Of a DNA stretch of 64,000 bases, positions 5,673 through 62,817 are shown piece after piece; position 1 is the first letter of the stretch, and each line of letters begins with the position of its first letter. The notes beneath the pieces are model-generated. The model had not been told where the DNA came from and did not search any database. It saw nothing but the letters and a program-made list of their open reading frames with translations. Origin of the DNA: Candidatus Wildermuthbacteria bacterium RIFCSPHIGHO2_01_FULL_48_25. GTDB taxonomy: Bacteria; Patescibacteriota; Minisyncoccia; Minisyncoccales; UBA10102. A program made the translations under genes and the position numbers. Location of the stretch: positions 43 through 64,042 of the forward strand of contig MHTR01000001.1 in NCBI GenBank assembly GCA_001823155.1, written 5' to 3'.

Positions 5673-6947
5673 TTAAAACAAAGATTTCTGGATGTTGAAG
5701 ATTTTTGGTTCGTTTTCTGGAAAGATCTTGATCTTTCCATACTCCCCATCATACCCTGGATCAATAACTACCCTTCCTTCACGAACTCTTTTTATGCCTT
5801 CTGCAACTTCCGGCAAAGTTGCAGACTGCAAGTCGCTCGCGGAGGCATCGAGAAGCACCGCGAACTCGTTTCCAAAGCGCTCGATGAGTTTTTGGTATTC
5901 TTCACGAGAGCGCTTGGTCCCAACTCCCACTCCTAATACGTCCGCAACAATCTCTTCCAAAGGAATTAAGCTTTTGAATGGAACTGCGTTCTCTGGCTTA
6001 AATCCCTCGGGCCTGTCTGCCAACTCTTCCACGCGATTAAGGACGCCAATAACCAATGGTTTTTTACACTTGGGACATAGATTATTGTTCTTCTTCGATT
6101 CTGCTGGAGCCATGCTCACTCCACACAAACGGTGCCCGTCATAGTGGTACTTTCCCTCTTCGGGGAAAAACTCAACAGTGAACAAAAAACGCTTGGGGTC
6201 TTTTGCTTTGAGCGTGTCGAGTATCGCCTGATAACTCATATCGGTATCGAAAACATTCGCTTCCCTCCCTATTTTCTCCAACGAATGGGAATCTGAGTTA
6301 CTGATAAGCGAAATCTTGTCTAAAGCAGACAACCTCCAGTTCATCGCAGGGTCTGAAGATAAGCCCGTTTCAATCGCAAAGATGTACTTAGTGTATTCGT
6401 CAAAGCATTCTTCCAAGGAGTTGAATCCTGATTTTGAACCAAACACCGCGAACCATGGAGTCCAAACATGAGCAGGTACCACCATGCAATTAGGGTCTGC
6501 GTCGAAAGCAATCTTGGCAACTTCTTTCGCATCAATACCAATGATCGGCCTGCCATCAGACCGTAAGTTCCCCACCCAGCCCAAACGCGTGTTGATTTTT
6601 TCAACAGCCGCAAAAGAAGGGGCGAGCAAAACCAAGTGCACCCTGCGTACCGCTCCTTTTTTGGAATAAATGCAACTTATCTCACACGAGAGAATGAATC
6701 TTGTTTGGGTTTCCTTGCCTTTCAGCCCTTCACTGCGGTTCAGGGCTTTCAGTTTATACAGTCCAGGTTCAGCTTCTTCCAAGCCCTCTTTGAGCTCCTG
6801 GAACCACACGGGGTGCGTGAAGTCTCCCGTGCCCATGACTTTAATGCCCTTAACCGCAGCCCACTTATCCAAATTCTCCAAAGTCATGGCTTTAGAAGTT
6901 GCTCTCGCAAACCGGGAGTGGATATGAAAATCTGCAACAAACTTCAT
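5673..6947 (-). CDS. endoQ: endonuclease Q-like PHP-domain nuclease (TIGR00375 type)
   Basis: 424 aa. Motifs: DFHIHSRFARATSK, GTGDFTHPVW, PAHVWTPWF, SNSDSHS, GKYHYDGHR, the zinc-finger CPKCKKPLVIGVLNRVEEL, and C-terminal PGYDGEYGKI. Same order and length as archaeal EndoQ. Confidence 0.75.
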   Translation of the reverse strand: MKFVADFHIHSRFARATSKAMTLENLDKWAAVKGIKVMGTGDFTHPVWFQELKEGLEEAEPGLYKLKALNRSEGLKGKETQTRFILSCEISCIYSKKGAVRRVHLVLLAPSFAAVEKINTRLGWVGNLRSDGRPIIGIDAKEVAKIAFDADPNCMVVPAHVWTPWFAVFGSKSGFNSLEECFDEYTKYIFAIETGLSSDPAMNWRLSALDKISLISNSDSHSLEKIGREANVFDTDMSYQAILDTLKAKDPKRFLFTVEFFPEEGKYHYDGHRLCGVSMAPAESKKNNNLCPKCKKPLVIGVLNRVEELADRPEGFKPENAVPFKSLIPLEEIVADVLGVGVGTKRSREEYQKLIERFGNEFAVLLDASASDLQSATLPEVAEGIKRVREGRVVIDPGYDGEYGKIKIFPENEPKIFNIQKSLF

Positions 6948-34476: not shown

Positions 34477-34659
34477 AAATTCAGTAGTAAGTAGTAAGTT
34501 TTAAAATAAAGAAAAGAGATTGCTGTTGTTGTTGGGGGTGTGGATGAAAGAAAATTTGAGGGAGGTTGTTCGGAAAAGAAAGGGGTGGTGAGTTGAGGGA
34601 GGGGTTGGGGATAATTACGGTGTTTTTGTTTTCGCAAAACCATACACAAGTTATCCACT
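34477..34659. other. candidate oriC module (dnaA-dnaN spacer)
   Basis: AT-rich tract with tandem GTAGTAA repeats at 34477-34518. DnaA-box-like 9-mers: TGTGGATGA (34539), TGGGGATAA (34606), TTATCCACT (34651). Confidence 0.45.
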
Positions 34660-36015
34660 GTAAATGCGCTGTCGAATCAACGTCATTTCCTCAACCAATC
34701 CTTCGGAATCTTGGAGCTCTTTTAGGATTTTCGCGCACGCGTAAATGGCTGTGGTGTGGTCTTTCCCGCCGAACTTTTCCCCAATAAAGGGGTAGGAGCT
34801 CTTTAGCTCTTCTCTAAGCAGGTACATGGCTATCTGGCGCGGTTTTACAATCTCCTTCTTTCTCGAGGGAGCCAAAATGTCTTTTTCTCGAATGTCATAA
34901 AACTCAGCCACTACCTGCACAATGCGCCGGGGCGTGGCGAACTTGCTCGGGCTCTGGATGACGCTGCGAAGCAGGTTCTTTGCTTCTGCCACCGTGGGCA
35001 AGGCGTTGTTGAGTTTATAAAAAGCAGCCAAGCGGTTAATGGCCCCTTCCAGTTCCCTGATGTTCCGCTGGATGTTTGAGGCGATGTAGTCGAGCACCGC
35101 GTCTTCCAGGGGAAGGGTTTTTTCCTGCGCCTTGGTTTTAATAATAGCCATTCTCGTCTCAAAGTCGGGGCTTGAGATGTCTGCTATCATTCCTCCTTCA
35201 AAGCGAGAGCGCAGGCGCTCCTCTAAGGCAGCGATGGCTTTTGGGGGTCTATCTGACGAGAACACGATCTGCTTGCCCCGTTCATATAACGTGTTGAAGG
35301 TGTGGAAGAGTTCTTCTTGTGTTTTGTCCTTTCCTGCCAGGAACTGCACATCGTCGAGCACCAACACGTCTAAGTCGCGGTAGGAGGCGCGGAAGTTGTC
35401 CATGGTGTGGTTGCGAATGGCAGACACCACGCCCGTGGTGAAGCGCTCGGAAGATACGTAGCGCACGCGTTTGTCGGCGAAGTCCTTTCCCATTTGGTTT
35501 CCCGCGGCCTGCAAAAGGTGGGTTTTCCCCAAACCCGTGCCGCCGTAAATGAACAAGGGGTTGTAGACAGAGCCCGGGCTCTTGGTCACCGCCTGGGTTG
35601 CCGCGTGCGCGAGCTCATTGAAAGGCCCCACCACGAAGTTGTCAAAGGTGTAGCGGGAGTTGAGGTTCGTGGTCTTGTCTACCGACAGGGGAGCCAGCTC
35701 CAGTTGGGCTTCCTGAGTGGCTGCTGCGGGAGAGGCCGCTTCCCTTTGGGTTTGGGCCTGGCGCTCCACCGTGTAGTTCACCTCCCGAACTTCGTTGTCC
35801 AGGTTCCTCAATATTTTAAAGATGAGCTTGTTGTACTTGTTCTCGAGCCACTCCTTTGAGAAGTTGTTGGGAACAGACACCACAACCTGCCCGCCCTTTT
35901 TGGCGAGAATGTACGTATTTTTAAGCCAGGTGGCGAAATTTGCCTGAGAAATCTGAAACTGCAGCTGCGCCAGGGTTGCTTGCCAGAGTTCTTCCTTAGT
36001 CATAGAGGTGAACAT
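34651..36015 (-). CDS. dnaA: chromosomal replication initiator DnaA
   Basis: Walker A GGTGLGKTHLL, VLVLDDVQFL, and the C-terminal DNA-binding domain (GGKDHTTAIYA). Confidence 0.95.
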   Translation of the reverse strand: MFTSMTKEELWQATLAQLQFQISQANFATWLKNTYILAKKGGQVVVSVPNNFSKEWLENKYNKLIFKILRNLDNEVREVNYTVERQAQTQREAASPAAATQEAQLELAPLSVDKTTNLNSRYTFDNFVVGPFNELAHAATQAVTKSPGSVYNPLFIYGGTGLGKTHLLQAAGNQMGKDFADKRVRYVSSERFTTGVVSAIRNHTMDNFRASYRDLDVLVLDDVQFLAGKDKTQEELFHTFNTLYERGKQIVFSSDRPPKAIAALEERLRSRFEGGMIADISSPDFETRMAIIKTKAQEKTLPLEDAVLDYIASNIQRNIRELEGAINRLAAFYKLNNALPTVAEAKNLLRSVIQSPSKFATPRRIVQVVAEFYDIREKDILAPSRKKEIVKPRQIAMYLLREELKSSYPFIGEKFGGKDHTTAIYACAKILKELQDSEGLVEEMTLIRQRIYSG

Positions 36016-36156
36016 GTCGATGGGTTATTATATGCTAAGCAGCAAAGCGCGCAAAGTAAGACTAAACCGGTTCCCTGTGTGGAAAACCTGGGGATAAAAA
36101 GGGGACAAGTTTGCGCTGTTGACCCCCAAGAGAAGTCGAGGTAGAATAGCTGTTAT
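36016..36156. other. candidate oriC module / divergent dnaA-rpmH control region
   Basis: DnaA-box-like TGTGGAAAA (36078) and TGGGGATAA (36089). rpmH promoter TTGACC-17-TAGAAT at 36119-36147. Confidence 0.4.
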
Positions 36157-36291
36157 ATGAGTATTACATATCGGGCTAAAAAGAAAAAGAGGGCCAAGAA
36201 GCACGGATTCCGAGCGCGCATGAGAAGGCCTGGAGGGAAAAAGGTTGTGGCAAGGCGCAGGAAAAAGGGCAGAAAGCGCCTTACCGTATAA
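36157..36291 (+). CDS. rpmH: 50S ribosomal protein L34
   Basis: Hand translation: [44 protein letters not shown] (44 aa). Absent from the ORF track because it is under 60 aa. Confidence 0.9.
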
Positions 36292-36295
36292 CCCA

Positions 36296-36646
36296 ATGCT
36301 CCCCAAGGCCTATCGCCTGTCTCGAGAAACGGATTTCCGGGCAGTGTTAAAAGAACACAAGGGCTTCCGCGAAGACGGCCTGTTCCTGAAGGCAAAGAAG
36401 AAAAGTGGCCATTCCCTCAGATTCGGAATAGTGGTGGGGAAAAACGTGAGCCTAAGGGCAACCAAGCGCAACCGTTTCAGAAGAGTTGTCTCTGAGGCCT
36501 TGCAAAAAAAGCTCTTGGAGATTAAAGAAGGGTATGACGCGGTGCTCATCGCGCTTCCCAAGGCAGAACTTAAGAGCTTGGCAGAGGCAGAGGCAGTTTT
36601 GGAAAAACTGCTCCGCAAAGCTTCTTTATTGAAACACAACCCATGA
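36296..36646 (+). CDS. rnpA: ribonuclease P protein component
   Basis: MLPKAYRLSRETDFRAVLK ... RNRFRRVV (RNR motif). The ORF opens at 36245. Confidence 0.9.
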   Translation: MLPKAYRLSRETDFRAVLKEHKGFREDGLFLKAKKKSGHSLRFGIVVGKNVSLRATKRNRFRRVVSEALQKKLLEIKEGYDAVLIALPKAELKSLAEAEAVLEKLLRKASLLKHNP

Positions 36647-36648
36647 AT

Positions 36649-36773
36649 CCCGTTAGAGATTACACATCTACATTTGAAAGCAGTATCAGTCAAACACAAA
36701 ATGACATGAAAAGTTCGATAGTTTTACCAATGAGTGACGGAAACGTTGCGAAACGTTTCCTATCTCTAACGGG
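36649..36773. mobile_element. MITE-like element, copy 1 (125 bp, 12-bp perfect TIRs, flanked by duplicated ATGAAT)
   Basis: CCCGTTAGAGAT at 36649-36660 and ATCTCTAACGGG at 36762-36773. ATGAAT at 36643-36648 and at 36774-36779. Subterminal hairpin at 36739-36760. Confidence 0.6.
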
Positions 36774-37505
36774 ATGAATATTATTTTCGGATTCTATAAC
36801 ACCCTTTTATACCAACCGCTCTTCAACTCCTTAATCCTGTTGTATGATTTCCTTCCCGGAAGGGACTTTGGGATTTCCATCATCGCGCTTACTGTTATTA
36901 TCCGCGTTGCTTTCTATCCCCTATCTGCCAGGGCTTTTATTGTGCAAAAAGCGTTTTCCGAACTCCAGCCAAAACTAAAAGAACTCCAGGAAAAGTTCAA
37001 GCATGACAAAGACATGTTGGCGCGGCAAACTCTGGAGATGTACAAGAAAAGCGGGGTGAATCCTTTGGCGAGTTTAGGCCCCTTATTGCTCCAGCTTCCC
37101 ATTCTGCTCGCCATTTTCCAGGTGTTCTCAAAGGGGCTGCAAGAGTCGCAACTCCTGAACCTGTATCCTTTTGTGGAGAACCCCGGAATTATTAACCCTA
37201 TGTTCCTGGGGTTGATTAACTTGAGCGAGCAGTCTTTGGTTTTGGCGCTCATGGCAGGGCTCCTCCAGTTTTTGCAAATGCAGGTTGGCCTTACCGCTCC
37301 CAGGGCAGCAGGTTCTAAGAAGCCCGGCATGGCCTTGGTGCAAAAGCACGCCACCCCCATTTTCTTCGCCGCCTTCACGATATATATTTTAACTCGCCTT
37401 CCCTCTGCCATTGGGGTATACTGGGTTGCGACCTCAGTGTTCTCCATTGCTCAGCAGTGGTACCTTGCAAAGAAGTTAAAATTAAAAGGCCAAAGTGAAA
37501 AATAA
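36774..37505 (+). CDS. yidC: membrane protein insertase YidC (short form)
   Basis: Five-TM YidC/Oxa1 core. Located in the rnpA-yidC-jag context. Confidence 0.9.
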   Translation: MNIIFGFYNTLLYQPLFNSLILLYDFLPGRDFGISIIALTVIIRVAFYPLSARAFIVQKAFSELQPKLKELQEKFKHDKDMLARQTLEMYKKSGVNPLASLGPLLLQLPILLAIFQVFSKGLQESQLLNLYPFVENPGIINPMFLGLINLSEQSLVLALMAGLLQFLQMQVGLTAPRAAGSKKPGMALVQKHATPIFFAAFTIYILTRLPSAIGVYWVATSVFSIAQQWYLAKKLKLKGQSEK

Positions 37506-37985
37506 ATGATACCGAACGAAACACTCAGAACCATAAGGGGCGTTGCCGAAGAATTTCTCCTTAAGCTTGAGGCGGAGGCGAAGGTGCAGGTTCGCGAAGA
37601 CGAAGAAGGAGCCGTACAAGTCTTGATTGACGCTGGCGAGCCCCAAATATTCATTGGCGAGCAAGGGCAAACGCTTCTTGAGATTCAGCATTTGTTGCGC
37701 CTAATGGTGCGAAAGAAGCTTGGAGAAGCTCCGTTGCTCGTGCTGGATATTAACGAGTACCGCAAGAGCAGGGAGACCTATTTGCGAGAACTCGCGAACA
37801 CCACAGCAGACGAAGTGGCTTTGCTCAAAAAAGAAAAAGAGCTGAGCGCAATGTCAGCCCAAGACCGGAGGATCGTTCACGTGGTCATTAGTGAGCGCCA
37901 AGACGTGGTTTCAGAGAGCGTGGGCGAAGAACCCGAGAGGAGAATTGTGATTAAGGTCAAAGAGTCGGAAAGTTCAACTCGGTAA
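37506..37985 (+). CDS. jag: Jag/KhpB-like RNA-binding protein (KH plus R3H)
   Basis: R3H region QDRRIVHVVISE. Located after yidC. Confidence 0.8.
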   Translation: MIPNETLRTIRGVAEEFLLKLEAEAKVQVREDEEGAVQVLIDAGEPQIFIGEQGQTLLEIQHLLRLMVRKKLGEAPLLVLDINEYRKSRETYLRELANTTADEVALLKKEKELSAMSAQDRRIVHVVISERQDVVSESVGEEPERRIVIKVKESESSTR

Positions 37986-38325
37986 ACCCGGGATTGATAA
38001 TCTCGAGGAGTATAAAAGAAGATAAAACCAGCAAAAGCCCCAAAAGGGCATTTTGTATTCTGTCTTTCGCGTCGCTCGCCAGAGACGGATTTGCCGCGGA
38101 CATCAACCACTGTATTCCGCCATATACGATCATTGCAAAGGCAGCAAGCCCGGAAATCCCAACAATTGTGTAATACACCCAAGCTATCACAGCGGGTAAG
38201 CTCTGGTCTTGATTAATGTCGGGTCCACCCAGAAACTTCGGATAATCCAGGTTAAGATTTAGCGCAAGCGCCGCGATGGGAAAGAGAAGCAGGAGCAGGG
38301 CAAGAGAAGGAAAAACGTATTTCAT
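37957..38325 (-). CDS. TrbC/VirB2-like T4SS pilin
   Basis: Start at MKYVFPSLALLLLLFPIAALA (signal peptide), then two TM helices separated by a short loop. The ORF extends to 38583. Confidence 0.55.
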   Translation of the reverse strand: MKYVFPSLALLLLLFPIAALALNLNLDYPKFLGGPDINQDQSLPAVIAWVYYTIVGISGLAAFAMIVYGGIQWLMSAANPSLASDAKDRIQNALLGLLLVLSSFILLEIINPGFTELNFPTL

Positions 38326-38339
38326 ATTATTGTATCGTA

Positions 38340-38789
38340 TCACTTTCCTCGAACCGTGGAAATGACCGCCCAGGTCCAAAGAACAAATATACTTAAAATA
38401 GGCACCAGCCCTCCTAAAAAGTAAAGAATTCCCCTTCTCCAGGCGCGACGCGTCGCCATTCTTCTTGCAATCAGCTTCTGCTGCTGTTCCTGGACGAATT
38501 TTTGGCGGAGCTCGGGAGCTTGCCGAATTCTTTGCACCTGCTCTGCGGCAGCCCACGGTCTTCCGCTCTTCCAAACCATCCACAGCATAATAGGTATTCC
38601 AAGAATGATGTTTTCAATAACCCCGAATGCGAGCGTAAAGTCCAAAATATCGATTGAAACCGCGACCGCCATCACCAGCATTACGTCGGGATCTAGGAAG
38701 CTTGCTGTGGCAGTCGGCGTCTCCTGCTCGGCAGGAGAGGCCTGTGGAGGTTGCTTTGCGCTTTGTTCCAATGCGAGTGCTTCCGCCAT
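38340..38789 (-). CDS. membrane protein of the T4SS-like locus
   Basis: 149 aa with 3 TM segments and a basic coiled central region. Confidence 0.45.
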   Translation of the reverse strand: MAEALALEQSAKQPPQASPAEQETPTATASFLDPDVMLVMAVAVSIDILDFTLAFGVIENIILGIPIMLWMVWKSGRPWAAAEQVQRIRQAPELRQKFVQEQQQKLIARRMATRRAWRRGILYFLGGLVPILSIFVLWTWAVISTVRGK

Positions 38790-38791
38790 GG

Positions 38792-40573
38792 TTATGTAGT
38801 TTCCCCTTGTTCTTTTTCTAAGATTTCCTTGGGACTCGTGGTAACGATCTGATGTTCAGTTGGGGAAGCCACTACTTTAATGGCTACATGCTTTTGTCCC
38901 GCGAAGAACACGCCCTCCCCCACCTCTGTTTCCAGGAGCAAGGACTTTTCTTCAGCAGTGAGGTTAAAGGACTTTTTTACTACATCAATAGTTGCGGGGC
39001 TTTGCTTCATTAGAATTTGGATGGAGGAGTTGGTAATGATGGGTCTCCCATACTCGGATTTTAAGAAATCCCCCACGTCTTGCGTAATGGTGGTAACTCC
39101 CAAATAGTATTTTCTTGCCCGTTTTGCGATTCCGTAGAGGAACGAGGCTCCGTCGTCAGACTGCATGATCCACCATGCCTCGTCTACCACGAGAATGCGT
39201 TTTTTCAGTTCAGAGCGCACCTTGTTCCATATGTAGCGCATGATGATGTACATTGCCATAGGCCGCAAACCCTCTTCCATGTCGCGTATGCCAAAAGCAA
39301 CAAACGGGTTTTGCATATCAATATTCGTTCTGTTGTTGAAGAAGTTGGCGTACGTGCCTTTGGTAAACTTGCGCAGGCGCGTCACCAGAGATTCTGCTCC
39401 TTCCATGGTTTCTAATACTCCTTCCAAGTCCTCCATGAGCGGTATGTTTTGCCGCCACATTGCGGGGTCTGAAGTAATGGTTATGTCTTTCGCGGCATAG
39501 GTCTCAGTTAAAGCTCTATCCATGATCGCGTCTTCCTCGGGATTCAAACCGCCGAGCATGATGCGCATTAACCCCACCAAGTTGATGACGTTTGAGCGCA
39601 AGACGTCTTCTGGTTTTTCGTCTTCTCTGGGCTCTGGCAGGTCAAAAGGATTGATATGGTTTTCAGAGCCAAGAGAAATGTCAAAGAAACTTCCACCCAC
39701 GGCGTTTGTCAGATTTTTGTACTCGTTTTCAGGGTCAAGCACGATTACGTCCACTCCGGTCATGAGATACCTTAGAATCTGTACCTTCACAAAGTAGCTT
39801 TTTCCAGAGCCAGATTTCGCGAACACCACCTCGTTCGCGTTTTCAAGGGAGAACCTGTCAAAGAGAATCAAAGAGTTGTTGTGCAGGTTGATTCCATACA
39901 AAATGCCTTCGTTCGAACTCAAATCAAACGACACAAAAGGAAATGTTGAAGACAATGGCTCGGTATTCATTGAGGTGTGCACCTGCAAAAAGTCTTTCCC
40001 ATATGGCACGCACGAGTTAAACCCTTCTTTTTGTTGGTAAAGCGCGGGTTTTATATAGAGTAACCGCGACTCAAAAATAGAACGCAAGGCAGTTTCAATC
40101 TGCCGCAATTCTTCCTGGGTTTCTCCGTACACCGTCAAATACAAGCCGAATTTGAACATGCGCTCCTGGGCTGTTTGGAGTTTGTCGCGAAGGGCTTCCA
40201 AGTCTTGGAACCCGGTTTGGAGTTCGGGGTCTCGCACCATGCCCTTGTCTTCTTTTTCCATGATTTCAGACTGCACCTCAGTAACTTTTCTTTGAAGCTG
40301 GCGCAGGATCGTGTTCGTATTCACGGGGTGCACGAACATCGAAATATCCATAGGCACATCAAGGTTGATGGCAGGCCCCAGCCAAGCAGCCGTCAGGTAT
40401 CTTGGATACGAGAACACAAAGAAAGATCGGGCGAATCTTCCCTGCAGGTCCAGGTATTCGGGAGCCACGCGAACCGAAGCAGGAGCAATAATGTCTTTTG
40501 CCGTGGTTACCTCGGTGTCGAAAAACTTCTCCACGGGCCTTGCCTTTTTCGTTTTTAAGAATGGCAGTTTCAT
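38792..40573 (-). CDS. virB4: VirB4/TraC-family T4SS ATPase
   Basis: Walker A AKSGSGKSYF and Walker B ILVVDEAWW, with a VirB4-like N-domain. Confidence 0.85.
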   Translation of the reverse strand: MKLPFLKTKKARPVEKFFDTEVTTAKDIIAPASVRVAPEYLDLQGRFARSFFVFSYPRYLTAAWLGPAINLDVPMDISMFVHPVNTNTILRQLQRKVTEVQSEIMEKEDKGMVRDPELQTGFQDLEALRDKLQTAQERMFKFGLYLTVYGETQEELRQIETALRSIFESRLLYIKPALYQQKEGFNSCVPYGKDFLQVHTSMNTEPLSSTFPFVSFDLSSNEGILYGINLHNNSLILFDRFSLENANEVVFAKSGSGKSYFVKVQILRYLMTGVDVIVLDPENEYKNLTNAVGGSFFDISLGSENHINPFDLPEPREDEKPEDVLRSNVINLVGLMRIMLGGLNPEEDAIMDRALTETYAAKDITITSDPAMWRQNIPLMEDLEGVLETMEGAESLVTRLRKFTKGTYANFFNNRTNIDMQNPFVAFGIRDMEEGLRPMAMYIIMRYIWNKVRSELKKRILVVDEAWWIMQSDDGASFLYGIAKRARKYYLGVTTITQDVGDFLKSEYGRPIITNSSIQILMKQSPATIDVVKKSFNLTAEEKSLLLETEVGEGVFFAGQKHVAIKVVASPTEHQIVTTSPKEILEKEQGETT

Positions 40574-42177: not shown

Positions 42178-42852
42178 ATGCCACAGAGAGTTGAGTCGTA
42201 CTGGATAAAGTTCTTGGGGATCATCCCGTTTGCGATGGCCACGAGAGTGGTCATGGACCCGGATCCTCAGCCTGCGCCCGCTGCTCCGGCGATCCCGCCC
42301 GAGGACGAGGATCCCGAACGGATTCTCGCAGGGGTGATGGTGGATGACGCCAGGTATGCGGCACAGGAACTGGCCCAGGTCGCAACAGAGGTGGCTATCG
42401 AGCGTCGTCTGCTCCAGGCTACACACAGGCGGGTTGAGCTCCGAAACATTCGGAGCCAGCGGGCGGATGCCGAAGCAGTCCTCTACGAAGTTCCCCACCA
42501 GGCAGAGAGGCGCGAGCGGCCGACTGTGCGCGTACGCGAGGAGGCCGCAACGCCACAGCCTCGACAGCAGAGACCCGAACCGGCACCCCGCGAACGAGCG
42601 CCCACTACCCAGCAGTTGGAGGATGCTTACCAGCGTGGCGTAGGCGATCGTCAAGGCCGCGTTGGTCAAGACGAAGCCGTTCGGCATGCGGCAGAGTACC
42701 CGGCGCAGCAAGGGCTGCGCAGATCGTACTGGGATGGATACGGCGATCGCCGAAACGCCTCAGCTGCTGCGCAGCCAGCTCCTGCGCCGGCAAACGCGCA
42801 GCCCGCTGCTGCCCAGGCGCCGCAGCCCAATGCTCAGGCACTGGGTGTGTAA
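42178..42852 (+). CDS. high-GC TM-anchored Pro/Ala/Gln/Arg-rich protein
   Basis: AAGGAG SD 7 nt before the ATG at 42178. N-terminal TM WIKFLGIIPFAMATRVV, then a PDPQPAPAAPAIPPEDEDP linker. The ORF opens at 42121. Confidence 0.5.
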   Translation: MPQRVESYWIKFLGIIPFAMATRVVMDPDPQPAPAAPAIPPEDEDPERILAGVMVDDARYAAQELAQVATEVAIERRLLQATHRRVELRNIRSQRADAEAVLYEVPHQAERRERPTVRVREEAATPQPRQQRPEPAPRERAPTTQQLEDAYQRGVGDRQGRVGQDEAVRHAAEYPAQQGLRRSYWDGYGDRRNASAAAQPAPAPANAQPAAAQAPQPNAQALGV

Positions 42853-59986: not shown

Positions 59987-60057
59987 GGGCCTGTAGTTAA
60001 GTGGTAAAACGCCGCATTCGCATTGCGGAGGCGCGAGTTCGATTCTCGCCAGGTCCA
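59987..60057 (+). tRNA. tRNA-Ala (anticodon CGC)
   Basis: Acceptor GGGCCTG/CAGGTCC with the G3:U70 identity pair, anticodon stem CCGCA/TGCGG with loop TTCGCAT, T-arm GCGAG-TTCGATT-CTCGC. Confidence 0.85.
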
Positions 60058-60120
60058 CAACAAAAGAAAAATCTCTGTAAAGGATATCCCTTGCAGAGAC
60101 TTTTCTTTTCTGGGAGTAAA

Positions 60121-60288: not shown

Positions 60289-60317
60289 TTGACAAAAAAT
60301 ATCCCTCGTGCTATACT
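60289..60317 (+). promoter_or_regulatory. sigma70-type promoter of the high-GC mini-unit
   Basis: TTGACA-17 nt-TATACT. Confidence 0.5.
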
Positions 60318-60391
60318 CTTTTCTATTGGCGTACAGAGAGTATGCCGAGGAGTTTCCGCCACAAGGCGGGAGAAAGGAATAGGCATCATAC

Positions 60392-60568
60392 ATGTCCAAA
60401 GCAGGTCCGTCCGAGACCCGAACCACGCCCCAAGAAGGTGACGTTATTTCCAAGCAGGACATCCACCCGATCGACGACGGCGCCCACGACGGCGAGACCA
60501 CGTCGACCCCGCGCGGCCGCGCCACCGGGAAGCCCGGCAAGCCGACGACGCGCCGGCCCCGCTGACGC
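60392..60568 (+). CDS. possible 58-aa hydrophilic protein in a very high-GC patch
   Basis: Hand translation: MSKAGPSETRTTPQEGDVISKQDIHPIDDGAHDGETTSTPRGRATGKPGKPTTRRPR. About 84% GC at third positions, the best of the three frames. The SD is weak. Confidence 0.3.
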
Positions 60569-60707
60569 GGCCAGGTCGTCCCGCCTCTCTCGGGTGAGGG
60601 AGGCGCGACAATCGGAATTCCGCACATCGCGGAGGAGGCAAGGATGAACGGTTTCATGCCGCCGTAGCGGCGAACAAGTGACCTACATAGTCGTCGATGA
60701 AAGGCCA

Positions 60708-60752
60708 TGGGCCCCTTAGGTGCAAAGCATCTTCGGGGCCCGAACTTTTTCT
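60708..60752 (+). terminator. intrinsic terminator of the high-GC mini-unit
   Basis: GGGCCCCTTAGGTGC-AAA-GCATCTTCGGGGCCC followed by GAACTTTTTCTT. Confidence 0.6.
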
Positions 60753-60779
60753 TGACTCCCTTTGTGCCCTATGATATAT
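60751..60779 (+). promoter_or_regulatory. nusA promoter
   Basis: TTGACT-17 nt-TATATA. The leader hairpin TCCGCT-GGAA-AGCGGA followed by TTTT at 60808-60830 could act as an attenuator. Confidence 0.45.
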
Positions 60780-60855
60780 AGTAAGTACTGGATGAAACGA
60801 TTGAGATGTCCGCTGGAAAGCGGATTTTAAATTCTAACAATACGCGAATACGCGC

Positions 60856-62088
60856 ATGATTGACTTAAAAAATCTCGCATTGCTTGTTGACCACATCTCT
60901 TCTGAAAAAGGATTAGCCAAAGAGGTGGTTTTTGACATGGTTGAGCAGGCCCTGGCTTCCGCGTACAAGAAAGAATACGGAAAGCGCGGCCAGGTTGTTG
61001 TCGCAAAACTCGACCCCAAAACAGGAAAGATAGATTTTTGGCAGGTGCAAACCGTGGTGGATGATTCCATGATTTACTCTGAAGAAGAGCTGGCTGAGCT
61101 GCAGGCCCGCGTGCCAGACGGGCAGGAGAAAAGAGTGATCCTTGAAGAGGAAGAAACTCCAAGCGAAGAAAAGAAGGTGCGTTTCAATCCTGAGCGCCAC
61201 GTTATGGTAGAAGACGCCAAGAAACTGAAAAAGGGAGCAAAGCCGGGAGAGACCATTGAAACAAAACTCCAAACGCACGCTGACTTTGGAAGGATCGCCG
61301 CCCAAACAGGCAAACAGGTTATTCTGCAGAAAATCAGGGAAGCTGAGCGCGACATGATTCTCAACGAGTTCAAGCAAAAAGAGGGAGAGCTTGTCTCGGG
61401 AGTCGTACAGCGCCTGGAAGGTTCCACCGTGCTTATTGATCTAGGAAAAACCTTGGGAGCGCTTCCCCGGGAAGAACAAACCCCAGGAGAGTTTTATCGG
61501 CCAGGCCAGCGCCTGAAGTTCTATGTTTTGCAAGTGCAAGACAGCACGCGCGGCCCGCAGATCATGCTGTCGCGCGCGTATCCCAAACTCATCTCTAAGC
61601 TCTTTGAGTTGGAGGTTCCGGAAATTCAAGGAGGGACCGTTGAGATAAAAGCCATCACAAGAGAGCCGGGTTCCCGTTCCAAGATAGCTGCTTTTTCCTT
61701 AGCAGACGGAGTGGATGCCGTGGGTTCTATGGTGGGTCAAAGAGGAACCAGGGTGACTGCGGTTATCAACGAACTGGGAGGGGAAAAAATCGATGTCATT
61801 GAATACGCAGAAGACCCCAAGAACTTTATCGCAAACGCCCTGTCCCCTGCCAAAGTGGTGGACGTGGAAGTACACGAAAAGAACCGGGCCGTTGCCTTGG
61901 TTGAAGAAGACCAACTTTCGTTAGCCATTGGAAGAGAAGGCCAGAATGTTCGTCTTGCCGCCAAACTGACCGGCTGGAAGATAGACGTGAGAACTCCTGG
62001 AGGGAAAGATGTGTCTTTGGAGGAACCTGCCTCTACTGAAGCCACGGCGCCCGAGGAGGAAGTTGCAGAAGAAAAGAAAGAGGAATAA
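60856..62088 (+). CDS. nusA: transcription termination/antitermination factor NusA
   Basis: N-terminal domain, S1 and two KH domains (GQRGTRV, AIGREGQNVRLAAKLTGWKIDV). Confidence 0.95.
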   Translation: MIDLKNLALLVDHISSEKGLAKEVVFDMVEQALASAYKKEYGKRGQVVVAKLDPKTGKIDFWQVQTVVDDSMIYSEEELAELQARVPDGQEKRVILEEEETPSEEKKVRFNPERHVMVEDAKKLKKGAKPGETIETKLQTHADFGRIAAQTGKQVILQKIREAERDMILNEFKQKEGELVSGVVQRLEGSTVLIDLGKTLGALPREEQTPGEFYRPGQRLKFYVLQVQDSTRGPQIMLSRAYPKLISKLFELEVPEIQGGTVEIKAITREPGSRSKIAAFSLADGVDAVGSMVGQRGTRVTAVINELGGEKIDVIEYAEDPKNFIANALSPAKVVDVEVHEKNRAVALVEEDQLSLAIGREGQNVRLAAKLTGWKIDVRTPGGKDVSLEEPASTEATAPEEEVAEEKKEE

Positions 62089-62105
62089 CATAAAAGAACA
62101 TGAAT

Positions 62106-62235
62106 CCCGTTAGAGATTGCACCTCATCTACTTACAAATACATGATTCCAAGAGCAAGGTACACAACCAGTCTTATGTCTATATCCGTAACCGACGGAAA
62201 CGCTTTGCGTAAAAGCGTTTCCTATCTCTAACGGG
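62106..62235. mobile_element. MITE-like element, copy 2 (130 bp, same TIRs, flanked by duplicated ATGAAT)
   Basis: CCCGTTAGAGAT at 62106-62117 and ATCTCTAACGGG at 62224-62235. ATGAAT at 62100-62105 and at 62236-62241. Subterminal hairpin at 62196-62222. Confidence 0.6.
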
Positions 62236-62817
62236 ATGAATCTCATTCCCACGGTCATTGAGAAATCGCAATACGGAGAACGCGCGTACGATATTTATTC
62301 AAGGCTTCTTAAAGACCGCATCATTTTTTTGGGAGCTCCCATTAACGACATGGTCGCGAACTCCATCATCGCGCAGCTTTTGTTTCTGGCTTCTCGTGAT
62401 TCTACAAAACCCATTCAGTTCTACGTCAACACCCCCGGAGGTTCGGTGACCGCGGGGTTAGCCATTTACGACACCATGCAGTACATCAAGTGCCCGGTGT
62501 CAACGGTGTGCGTTGGCATGGCAGCCTCCATGGGAGCAGTGCTGCTTGGGGCGGGAACCGCGGGAAAACGCTTCGCGCTTCCCAATTCGCAGATCATGCT
62601 CCACCAGGTTGCGGGAGGCGTGACCGGAGAAGCAGTGGAAATTGAAATAACGGCAAAGCAAATAGTAAAGATACGCGAGCGGTTAAACTCCATTATCTCA
62701 AAGCACACCAAGCAATCTCTCGCGAAAGTGGAAAAAGACACTGACCGCGATTTTTACATGACTCCCGAGGAAGCAAAAGCATACGGCCTCATTGATGAGG
62801 TCATTGACGGGAAATAA
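62236..62817 (+). CDS. clpP: ATP-dependent Clp protease proteolytic subunit
   Basis: [33 protein letters not shown], with the catalytic Ser (MAASMG) and His (MLHQ). Confidence 0.95.

Follow-up and report, generated by a model that had tools for sequence, protein, structure and literature searches.

The window analyzed here, a 64,000-nucleotide (nt) stretch of contig MHTR01000001.1 from Candidatus Wildermuthbacteria bacterium RIFCSPHIGHO2_01_FULL_48_25, carries two copies of a short element bounded by inverted repeats, one at the rnpA/yidC junction (copy A, 36643-36779) and one at the nusA/clpP junction (copy B, 62100-62241). Both copies are very probably non-autonomous DNA transposons, that is, miniature transposable elements with inverted repeats (MITEs), of one widespread family that persists in translation-initiation regions. 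The anatomy of the element, its target-site duplication, its multiple copies, the empty sites in relatives, and its position by real genes are directly observed, and the element is recently mobile in the host population. A preliminary description of copy A as a MITE-like mobile element located exactly at the yidC start codon is borne out by conserved termini in at least 120 loci and by the empty sites; the accompanying proposals on the duplication and on a coupling open reading frame (ORF) need the revisions given below.

Structure of the window copies and of the family

Copy A is a 127-bp insert on the forward strand, lying between rnpA (RNase P protein, 36296-36646, from the ORF list; PF00825 was detected in the identical gene of loci L121-L125) and yidC (36774-37505, encoding a short 243-aa insertase, PF02096), both forward. 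At its left side, the rnpA stop codon TGA (36644-36646) overlaps, as ATGA, a relic start codon (36643-36645), the original yidC ATG and now the start of an upstream ORF, as read from the sequence and from the empty orthologous site in L138 (cccATGAGTATT). The left target-site duplication TGAA (36644-36647) is followed by a 13-nt terminal inverted repeat TCCCGTTAGAGAT (36648-36660), an interior (36661-36736) that is unconserved by the alignment of the window copies and by end profiles and has 38% GC in host DNA of ~50% GC, and a subterminal module (36737-36761) consisting of AC, a 9-bp hairpin (36739-36747/36752-36760, arms GGAAACGTT/AACGTTTCC, loop GCGA), and an unpaired T. The right 13-nt terminal repeat ATCTCTAACGGGA (36762-36774) ends in A36774, the A of the yidC ATG, and the right TGAA (36775-36778) contains both the TG of the start codon of yidC and the TGA at which the upstream ORF stops. 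This 44-codon ORF (MNPVRDYTST...LSLTG) runs from the relic ATG to the TGA overlapping the yidC ATG and is present in the ORF list at 36643-36777, as had been described. The described terminal repeats were also found, perfect even over 14 nt (36647-36660/36762-36775, ATCCCGTTAGAGAT), as were the hairpin stem and the two ATGAAT hexamers at 36643-36648 and 36774-36779, the left one overlapping the rnpA stop and the right one opening yidC.

Copy B, also on the forward strand and 132 bp long, has the same layout between nusA (60856-62088) and clpP (62236-62817, PF00574), likewise forward. Its relic ATG (62100-62102), 11 nt beyond the nusA stop, overlaps the left TGAA (62101-62104), where the empty L130 site reads GAACATGAATCTCATT. 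The left terminal repeat TCCCGTTAGAGAT (62105-62117), the module of AC, an 11-bp hairpin (62196-62206/62212-62222), and an unpaired T (62194-62223), the right terminal repeat ATCTCTAACGGGA (62224-62236), and the right TGAA (62237-62240) follow, with A62236 forming the A of the clpP ATG. ATGAAT thus stands on both sides, the right one being the clpP start. A 43-codon upstream ORF (62100-62231) ends at the TAA within the right terminal repeat (UAA-CGGG-AUG). In the alignment, copies A and B share the ends and the AC-hairpin-T module by the right end, whereas the interiors have diverged and the stem of copy B is the longer one.

As RNA, the copy A segment folds at -39.9 kcal/mol (z = -4.4), a value equaled by none of 200 shuffles, and the 16-nt end motif occurs in four arms in the window, compared with 0.42 expected, an excess due to the second copy at 62100-62241. 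From the fold z-score and the end-motif excess, the structure of copy A is beyond chance. A search of the window with the family profile (nhmmer) recovered copies A and B only. A possible third copy near 42220-42236 had three mismatches, lacked a partner arm, and lay inside an ORF, and was treated as a chance match. Rfam 15 gave nothing relevant at E values up to 10 in the surroundings of copy A (35900-37300), and the whole window yielded five tRNAs only. The window elements (36648-36774 and 62105-62236) have 38-42% GC in a host of ~50% GC, which fits an origin in a more AT-rich genome.

Further members were sought in public genomes, one per species, with the pattern CCGTTAGAGAT...ATCTCTAACGG, which demands exact 11-mers at both ends no more than 600 bp apart and leaves the flanks outside the pattern. 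The family counts given here rest on the matches listed, at least 120 loci with exact termini from ~85 species-level genome bins, with 126 copies in the flank table. All hosts are metagenome bins, so that a few host taxa could be misassigned, and related copies are not fully independent, yet the signals survived clustering. Among the matches listed, the hosts include many classes of Patescibacteria, Omnitrophota, Planctomycetota, Elusimicrobia, and Ratteibacteria, and single bins of Ignavibacteria and Clostridia; several genomes carry three to five or more copies each. The elements are ~115-135 bp long, with 13-nt terminal inverted repeats (T/C)CCCGTTAGAGAT, and fall into two end types: TC (TCCCG...CGGGA), found essentially in Patescibacteria, and CC (CCCCG...CGGGG), found in Omnitrophota, Planctomycetota, and others. 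The outermost end pair switches jointly between the two types, and variant copies likewise alter both terminal arms together (GAGAC/GTCTC in four copies from three genomes; GAAGT/ACTTC in L072). Viral and phage contigs gave no matches to the element ends. In the literature searched, the terminal sequence returned irrelevant primer-like matches only, and nothing was found that joins MITEs, start codons, and Patescibacteria. The family is large, apparently undescribed, and almost confined to translation start regions of the ultra-small bacteria of the candidate phyla radiation (CPR) and some neighboring phyla.

Target-site duplication and recent mobility

Of 126 copies, 67 have a perfect 4-nt direct repeat immediately outside the 13-nt ends (permutation null: mean 10.6, maximum 20). 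Repeats of 2, 3, 5, 6, 7, or 8 nt anchored in the same way fail, and none of the 126 has a perfect 6-nt repeat; some of the apparent mismatches are 3-nt or 5-nt duplications. The preliminary description had read ATGAAT as a 6-bp duplication, and a target duplication is indeed real, only that it comprises the 4 nt TGAA: ATGAAT is composed of A, TGAA, and T because the A on the right is the last base of the element and the T on the left its first. In this manner, the right end ...GGGA followed by a duplicated TGnn rebuilds an ATG. Nor is ATGAAT a fixed target. The search for more copies, suggested together with a tabulation of their flanks, showed the left flank matching the right within a copy while the flanks vary among copies (TGAA, TGGA, TGAG, TGCG, TTTA, TAAA, TTGA, CAAA, CTGA, TTAG, CGCG, and others), with at least 12 different tetramers serving as duplications.

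Two tandem arrays bear on target choice. At L003 (5898-6279), three head-to-tail elements sit on one start codon with TGAA between each, reading ATGAA[el]TGAA[el]TGAA[el]TGAATAAA, where el denotes an element; L086 (3368-3634) holds an array of at least three CC-type elements with a single TTCA between them, the third of which leaves the contig and has the variant end CCCCGTTCGGAG. Since every insertion recreates its target, the arrays speak for a real target preference, beyond selection alone. The middle element of L003 (~6023-6155) has different inner repeats (TCCCGTAGTAG... / ...CACTACGGGA) and shares only the outer TCCCGT/ACGGGA with its neighbors; therefore, sibling families exist that are invisible to the exact-pattern scan.

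Filled and empty sites were found for both window copies. L130, whose ClpP is identical and whose sequence matches the window at 99.5% over 4.6 kb, lacks 136 bp at the nusA-clpP junction, which there is continuous sequence with a single TGAA within a single ATGAAT and reads GAGGAATAGCATAAAAGAACATGAATCTCATT. Other differences in the L130 scaffold, considered as further insertions or deletions, proved to be runs of N. The empty orthologous rnpA-yidC junction that the preliminary description had suggested looking for is present in L138, the nearest relative species (YidC 90% identical), as a plain rnpA/yidC ATGA overlap, cacccATGAGTATTATT; the rnpA-yidC junctions of L143 and L139-141 (Candidatus Wildermuthbacteria, ~72% identical) are empty as well. 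All contigs with identical YidC carry the yidC copy, and in one of these, L127, the element interior carries single-nucleotide polymorphisms. A metagenome scan limited to the hairpin of the window lineage detected three more insertions, before secY-like, glyA-like, and rpiB-like genes, all on the start codon. Five short metagenome contigs (L126, L127, L135, L136, and L137) break off within the element, at a distance of 48-150 nt from the downstream yidC or clpP; therefore, the repeat fragments assemblies.

Gene starts, the hairpin, and the upstream open reading frame

In the TC type, 62 of 71 copies (87%) are located precisely on the ATG with which an ORF of 60 aa or more begins. Ten TC downstream ORFs sampled at random were all housekeeping genes with Pfam domains from the N-terminus, including SAICAR synthetase, TruB, BipA, RecR, L17, 6PGDH, RRF, RuvX, and an exonuclease. 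A Shine-Dalgarno (SD)-like motif precedes the relic codon in 5 of 73 TC copies only. The relic ATG itself is kept in ~53 of 58 copies, a fraction not clearly above that of neighboring free positions, which allows no conclusion on selection. Among CC copies, approximately one fifth are on a start codon (GTG), 24 of 50 have a gene start 3-19 nt past the hairpin-side end, and many lie between a GGAGG-type motif and the ATG (e.g., L045, L063, L075, L108, and L112). The hairpin end is directed toward the gene in ~58 of 63 TC copies and ~27 of 37 informative CC copies.

Family-wide conservation is limited to the ends and a one-sided module, tACGG-hairpin-CC-T, the interior being unconserved in the end profiles. 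The hairpin covaries, with 78 different stems among 124 copies and all four Watson-Crick types at each of pairs 3-7, and the mean folding energy is -10.4 kcal/mol by the hairpin-side end, compared with -1.9 on the mirror side and -4.1 in shuffles. A covarying hairpin 15 nt before the start codon, in fixed orientation to the gene in both subfamilies, could denote an exapted mobile regulatory module kept for host benefit: a common translational control device whose terminal helix might serve as a thermometer or be bound by an RNA-binding protein or the transposase, a site cut by RNase III to free an mRNA with a short leader, or a stabilizing 5' hairpin in front of many housekeeping genes. Compatible with this explanation are the covariation of the terminal arms, the stacking of hairpin and terminal helix to ~20-24 bp in the predicted fold, and the core genes among the targets (yidC, clpP, secY-like, frr, rplQ, truB, and bipA). 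However, that near-identical strains differ in carrying the element and that the nearest species lacks it both speak against a needed function, the target genes share no functional class, Rfam matches and interior conservation are lacking, and the structure is predicted to inhibit initiation rather than help it. We consider exaptation unlikely.

No terminator-like sites were found in the elements, and promoter-like matches are not above shuffles; a role as terminator or promoter was rejected on these grounds. One specific form of the latter, an outward promoter in the element, would place the transcript start near the hairpin, leaving the left arm out of the mRNA, so that a short leader with a 5' hairpin but no masking helix would result. 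The orientation bias would suit such a directional signal, and there is a weak TA...T tendency just upstream of the conserved ACGG as well as one 9/12 promoter-like match in copy A (36674-36702), but the information upstream of the hairpin reaches at most 0.7 bit, neither window copy has a correctly placed -10-like hexamer, copy B lacks any promoter-like site, and many copies are operon-internal, making this a highly improbable explanation.

Both window copies, and close relatives as well, have the coupling ORF postulated for copy A. With shuffled interiors, the frame stays open with a probability of 0.076 in copy A and 0.145 in copy B. Across the family, a first count, in which 11 of 53 upstream ORFs reached the right end, suggested no selection; a fuller analysis of the TC type changed that. 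The relic-ATG frame is stop-free in 17 of 75 distinct TC elements, compared with 5.7 in shuffles and 0-10 in the other five frames, and contains on average 1.91 stops (TC type) as against 2.50 ± 0.17. The lengths of TC elements modulo 3 are biased toward multiples of 3 (38/21/16, multiples of 3 first; 29.5/13.3/10.2 at the cluster level, p = 0.002). A through-reading upstream ORF occurs in 14 of 75 TC copies, spread over 13 of 53 sequence clusters. Almost all of these ORFs stop at the TAA of the right repeat (UAA-CGGG-AUG), copy A using the AUGA overlap, and their peptides are unrelated except for the parts encoded by the ends (MNPVRD...SYL). In the in-frame class, where an open frame would extend the protein, 0 of 12 are open, and the CC subfamily has neither an open-frame nor a length bias. 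With approximately three-fold enrichment but presence in only about one fifth of the copies, the coupling ORF is a favored option and not a built-in property; it appears to be favored by selection but dispensable. The preliminary claim accordingly stands for the window copies and as an enrichment, and falls as a general, conserved feature of the element. In four loci (L128, L131, L133, and L134), public gene calls annotate the 43-codon upstream ORF of the clpP copy as a protein gene (2865-2996 or equivalent).

These counts also bear on a strict version of the preliminary proposal, in which the hexamer ATGAAT would be targeted at start codons with a 6-bp duplication and a conserved coupling ORF would be integral to the element. 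ATGAA flanks and through-reading ORFs are indeed found in copies A and B and, within their lineage, in the secY-like and rpiB-like copies, and the enrichment of the open frame in the TC subfamily points the same way. Against this, the sixth base of the left hexamer is always the T of the element and the first base of the right one always its A, a perfect 6-nt repeat is absent throughout the flank table, flanks vary widely, most upstream ORFs fall short of the right end and the peptide is not conserved, and the CC subfamily is mostly off start codons. The strict version is thus very unlikely.

The transposon interpretation leads to the following model. A transposase acting in trans would insert the element by a staggered cut, duplicating 3-5 nt, most often 4, and would favor T..A tetramers such as TGAA. 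When a TC-type element enters the TGnn of a gene's ATGnn, its ...GGGA end would restore an ATG before the coding sequence and leave the old ATG as an upstream relic. The copies that survive in gene-dense genomes would be those in translation-initiation regions, exactly on the start codon in Patescibacteria and a few nucleotides upstream, often between the SD sequence and the AUG, in Omnitrophota and Planctomycetota. In the mRNA, the two ends may pair, occluding the rebuilt start with a 13-14-bp helix. To expose this start is predicted to cost 16-17 kcal/mol at filled sites versus 2-4 at empty ones, and 7-10 when the left arm is kept open. The helix could be opened by ribosomes coming from the gene upstream (rnpA for copy A) or starting at the relic ATG. 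In open-frame copies, they would terminate at the right-end stop, either the UAA 4 nt before the AUG or the overlapping UGA, and reinitiate on the real gene. Termination-reinitiation needs short stop-start distances (PMC6728339, PMC10666635). For copy A, rnpA ribosomes would halt at the foot of the helix, could start again at the relic ATG, and after 44 codons would terminate on the yidC ATG. In copy B, where the nusA stop is 11 nt ahead of the relic ATG, the ORF would deliver ribosomes 4 nt before the clpP ATG. In copies with an early stop, transient opening by upstream ribosomes, co-transcriptional loading, or looping out of the element between SD and AUG may suffice. We infer that downstream genes would be expressed through such helix opening and reinitiation.

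Neither window copy has coding capacity for a transposase, the only ORFs being those of 43-44 codons with unconserved peptides. A cross-genome comparison of ~1 Mb of flanking DNA revealed no ORF common to unrelated genomes that would mark a transposase, and no autonomous parent was found there between distant end-like motifs, the long intervals holding ordinary genes such as PriA, an ABC-F ATPase, and a sugar transferase.

Several observations weigh against the transposon interpretation and the expression model built on it. Neither an autonomous element nor a transposase with these ends was found in the ~1 Mb of flanking DNA or in viral contigs, and the same 11-13-nt termini recur in at least seven phylum-level groups, which is odd for a MITE; the single Clostridia and Ignavibacteria matches could be mis-binned contigs, and the sampling is biased, resting on exact 11-mers at both ends, at least 120 loci, and metagenome bins throughout. 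A perfect 4-nt repeat is missing from 47% of the copies, and one Omnitrophota-type sub-lineage has recurrent non-duplicated flanks (CTTG or TTTG on the left, TAAA or TGAA on the right). In ~80% of the start-codon copies, the upstream ORF stops early, so that termination-reinitiation is not the general route of expression, and, with symmetric ends, start-codon rebuilding cannot account for the strong orientation bias. Members of the sub-lineage with non-duplicated flanks (L009, L017, L022, L040, L045, L048, L059, L063, L074, L075, and L112) share the hairpin GGAAGCGC... and often have a GGAGG-like motif just left of the element; their downstream genes are unrelated and, therefore, the insertions are independent events.

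Known parallels, genomic context, and significance

Like bacterial MITEs, which derive from insertion sequences, lack autonomy, and measure under ~500 bp, the elements described here are short and non-coding, have perfect terminal repeats and short duplications, occur in many copies per genome at filled and empty sites, and break metagenome assemblies. They differ in that a search of ~1 Mb of flanking DNA revealed no parent insertion sequence, several phyla share identical termini, 87% of the TC type lies on start codons with a terminal base completing the ATG, and a covarying hairpin is placed on one side in fixed orientation. Apart from a known parent, the family shows all structural hallmarks of a MITE.

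A structure-conserved subterminal hairpin is also typical of IS200/IS605 ends, and the element might instead be a hairpin-guided single-strand DNA transposon derived from that group, or a site-specific recombination cassette, rather than a DDE element; the sequence GTTAGAG/CTCTAAC seems to us vaguely like integron core sites. IS200/IS605-derived elements have hairpins at both ends, insertion 3' of a fixed tetra- or pentanucleotide, and no terminal repeats or duplication, features that the family does not display: its hairpin is at one end only, and its perfect 13-nt terminal repeats and variable 3-5-nt duplications are produced by neither system. This origin is extremely improbable.

Among DDE elements, the (T/C)CCCG... 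ends and the mostly 4-nt, T..A-rich duplication recall IS1380 and piggyBac, although these features are not specific to that family. The terminal CCCGTTAGAGATA resembles CCCTAGAAAGATA of piggyBac, which likewise has asymmetric subterminal features; we take this as a lead only, the resemblance being short. IS1380 transposases serve as the prokaryotic outgroup of piggyBac (PMC10813416), and IS701 and ISH3 also make ~5-bp duplications (PMC2266710). The end sequence and duplication length suggest an IS1380/piggyBac-like transposase. An assignment to a parent family from published tables of ends and duplications was abandoned, since several families fit.

Mycobacterial interspersed repetitive units (MIRUs) are 46-101-bp tandem-repeat units, known only from mycobacteria and not known to have terminal inverted repeats or target duplications. 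The preliminary description knew of no element that targets start codons and carries a coupling ORF; MIRUs have been described in just these terms, inserting at start codons and containing an ORF that is coupled at -4 nt (2025 review PMC12548453, citing Supply et al. 1997), and this ORF is thought to make the insertion harmless to expression (PMC12548453). The coupling logic is exactly that proposed for the window element, and the two kinds of element have in common that they are small, mobile-looking repeats at start codons or gene junctions in operons, with the ORF stop overlapping the downstream start. Flank overlap of the MIRU type is found at both ends of copy A (ATGA), nearly so in copy B, and in 14 of 75 family members. 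Unlike MIRUs, the family has terminal repeats and duplications, resides in other phyla, and carries the coupling ORF in only about one fifth of its copies.

Correia/NEMIS elements are reportedly 100-155-bp MITEs that are co-transcribed with their neighbors and whose inverted repeats pair in the mRNA. Their repeats measure 26 bp and their duplication is TA; they carry an IHF site and promoters directed outward, undergo documented cleavage by RNase III, and are restricted to one genus (Neisseria) without linkage to start codons, in contrast to the 13-nt repeats, the 3-5-nt duplications, and the Patescibacteria and other hosts found here. Rickettsia palindromic elements are said to be palindromic selfish DNA of reduced genomes, inserted in frame within coding sequences and translated; the similarity consists of persistence in gene-dense genomes through insertions compatible with gene expression, and the difference is that the in-frame configuration is avoided in the present family. 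In phage T4 genes 38 and 25, a stable stem-loop between the SD sequence and the AUG is looped out, letting both signals work jointly (a "split" ribosome binding site). The CC-type copies between GGAGG and ATG match this in position and may be bridged likewise, but the phage hairpins are short and fixed, whereas these are 120-nt mobile insertions.

The genes around copy A form a putative rpmH-rnpA-yidC-jag operon, with rpmH at 36157-36291 and jag, next after yidC, at 37506-37985, both on the forward strand, and dnaA (34651-36015) on the minus strand. The divergent dnaA/rpmH intergenic region (36016-36156) is probably near the replication origin and contains a strong sigma-70-like promoter (TTGACC-17-TAGAAT, 36119-36147) for this operon. 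Directly downstream of jag, the minus strand (37957-40573) encodes a type IV secretion-like cluster that is conserved in Wildermuthbacteria relatives and consists of a pilin-like gene (weak Pfam match), a 149-aa ORF, and a VirB4/TraG-like ATPase (38792-40573). Upstream of copy B, a GC-rich island (60300-60800; 0.62-0.64 GC versus ~0.50 nearby) between tRNA-Ala (59987-60058) and nusA has Arg/Pro-rich ORFs on both strands and coincides with an N-gap in the L130 scaffold.

More tentatively, and with more doubt than confidence, we propose that this is a "translation-transparent" transposon lineage adapted to gene-dense genomes, with start sites as a safe haven. The outermost pair would have changed from C/G to T/A in Patescibacteria, letting the element complete an ATG from the duplicated TG. 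Right-end stops in two frames within 7 nt of the ATG (UAA-CGGG-AUG or AUGA) would hand ribosomes to the real gene, element length and stop content would be tuned for an open hand-over frame, and the oriented hairpin would belong to the same expression-rescue device. If so, this lineage would be the first MITE family shown to join terminal repeats and target duplication with start-codon reconstruction, and its spread over several uncultivated phyla would make it a natural probe of translation initiation there.

In practical terms, the element fragments assemblies and seeds spurious small ORFs in databases, and it marks recent strain-level change in an aquifer population. In many genomes of CPR bacteria, Omnitrophota, and Planctomycetota, it precedes core genes, among them yidC, clpP, secY-like, frr, and rplQ. 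A tiny, gene-dense genome offers a transposon hardly any site where insertion does no harm, and this family appears to solve the problem by inserting at the start codon or between SD and AUG and rebuilding the signal that it splits, a solution for which MIRUs, of quite different architecture, are the sole described parallel. Hundreds of independent insertions of a 13-bp helix on start codons would offer a way to learn how translation is initiated in the SD-poor Patescibacteria.

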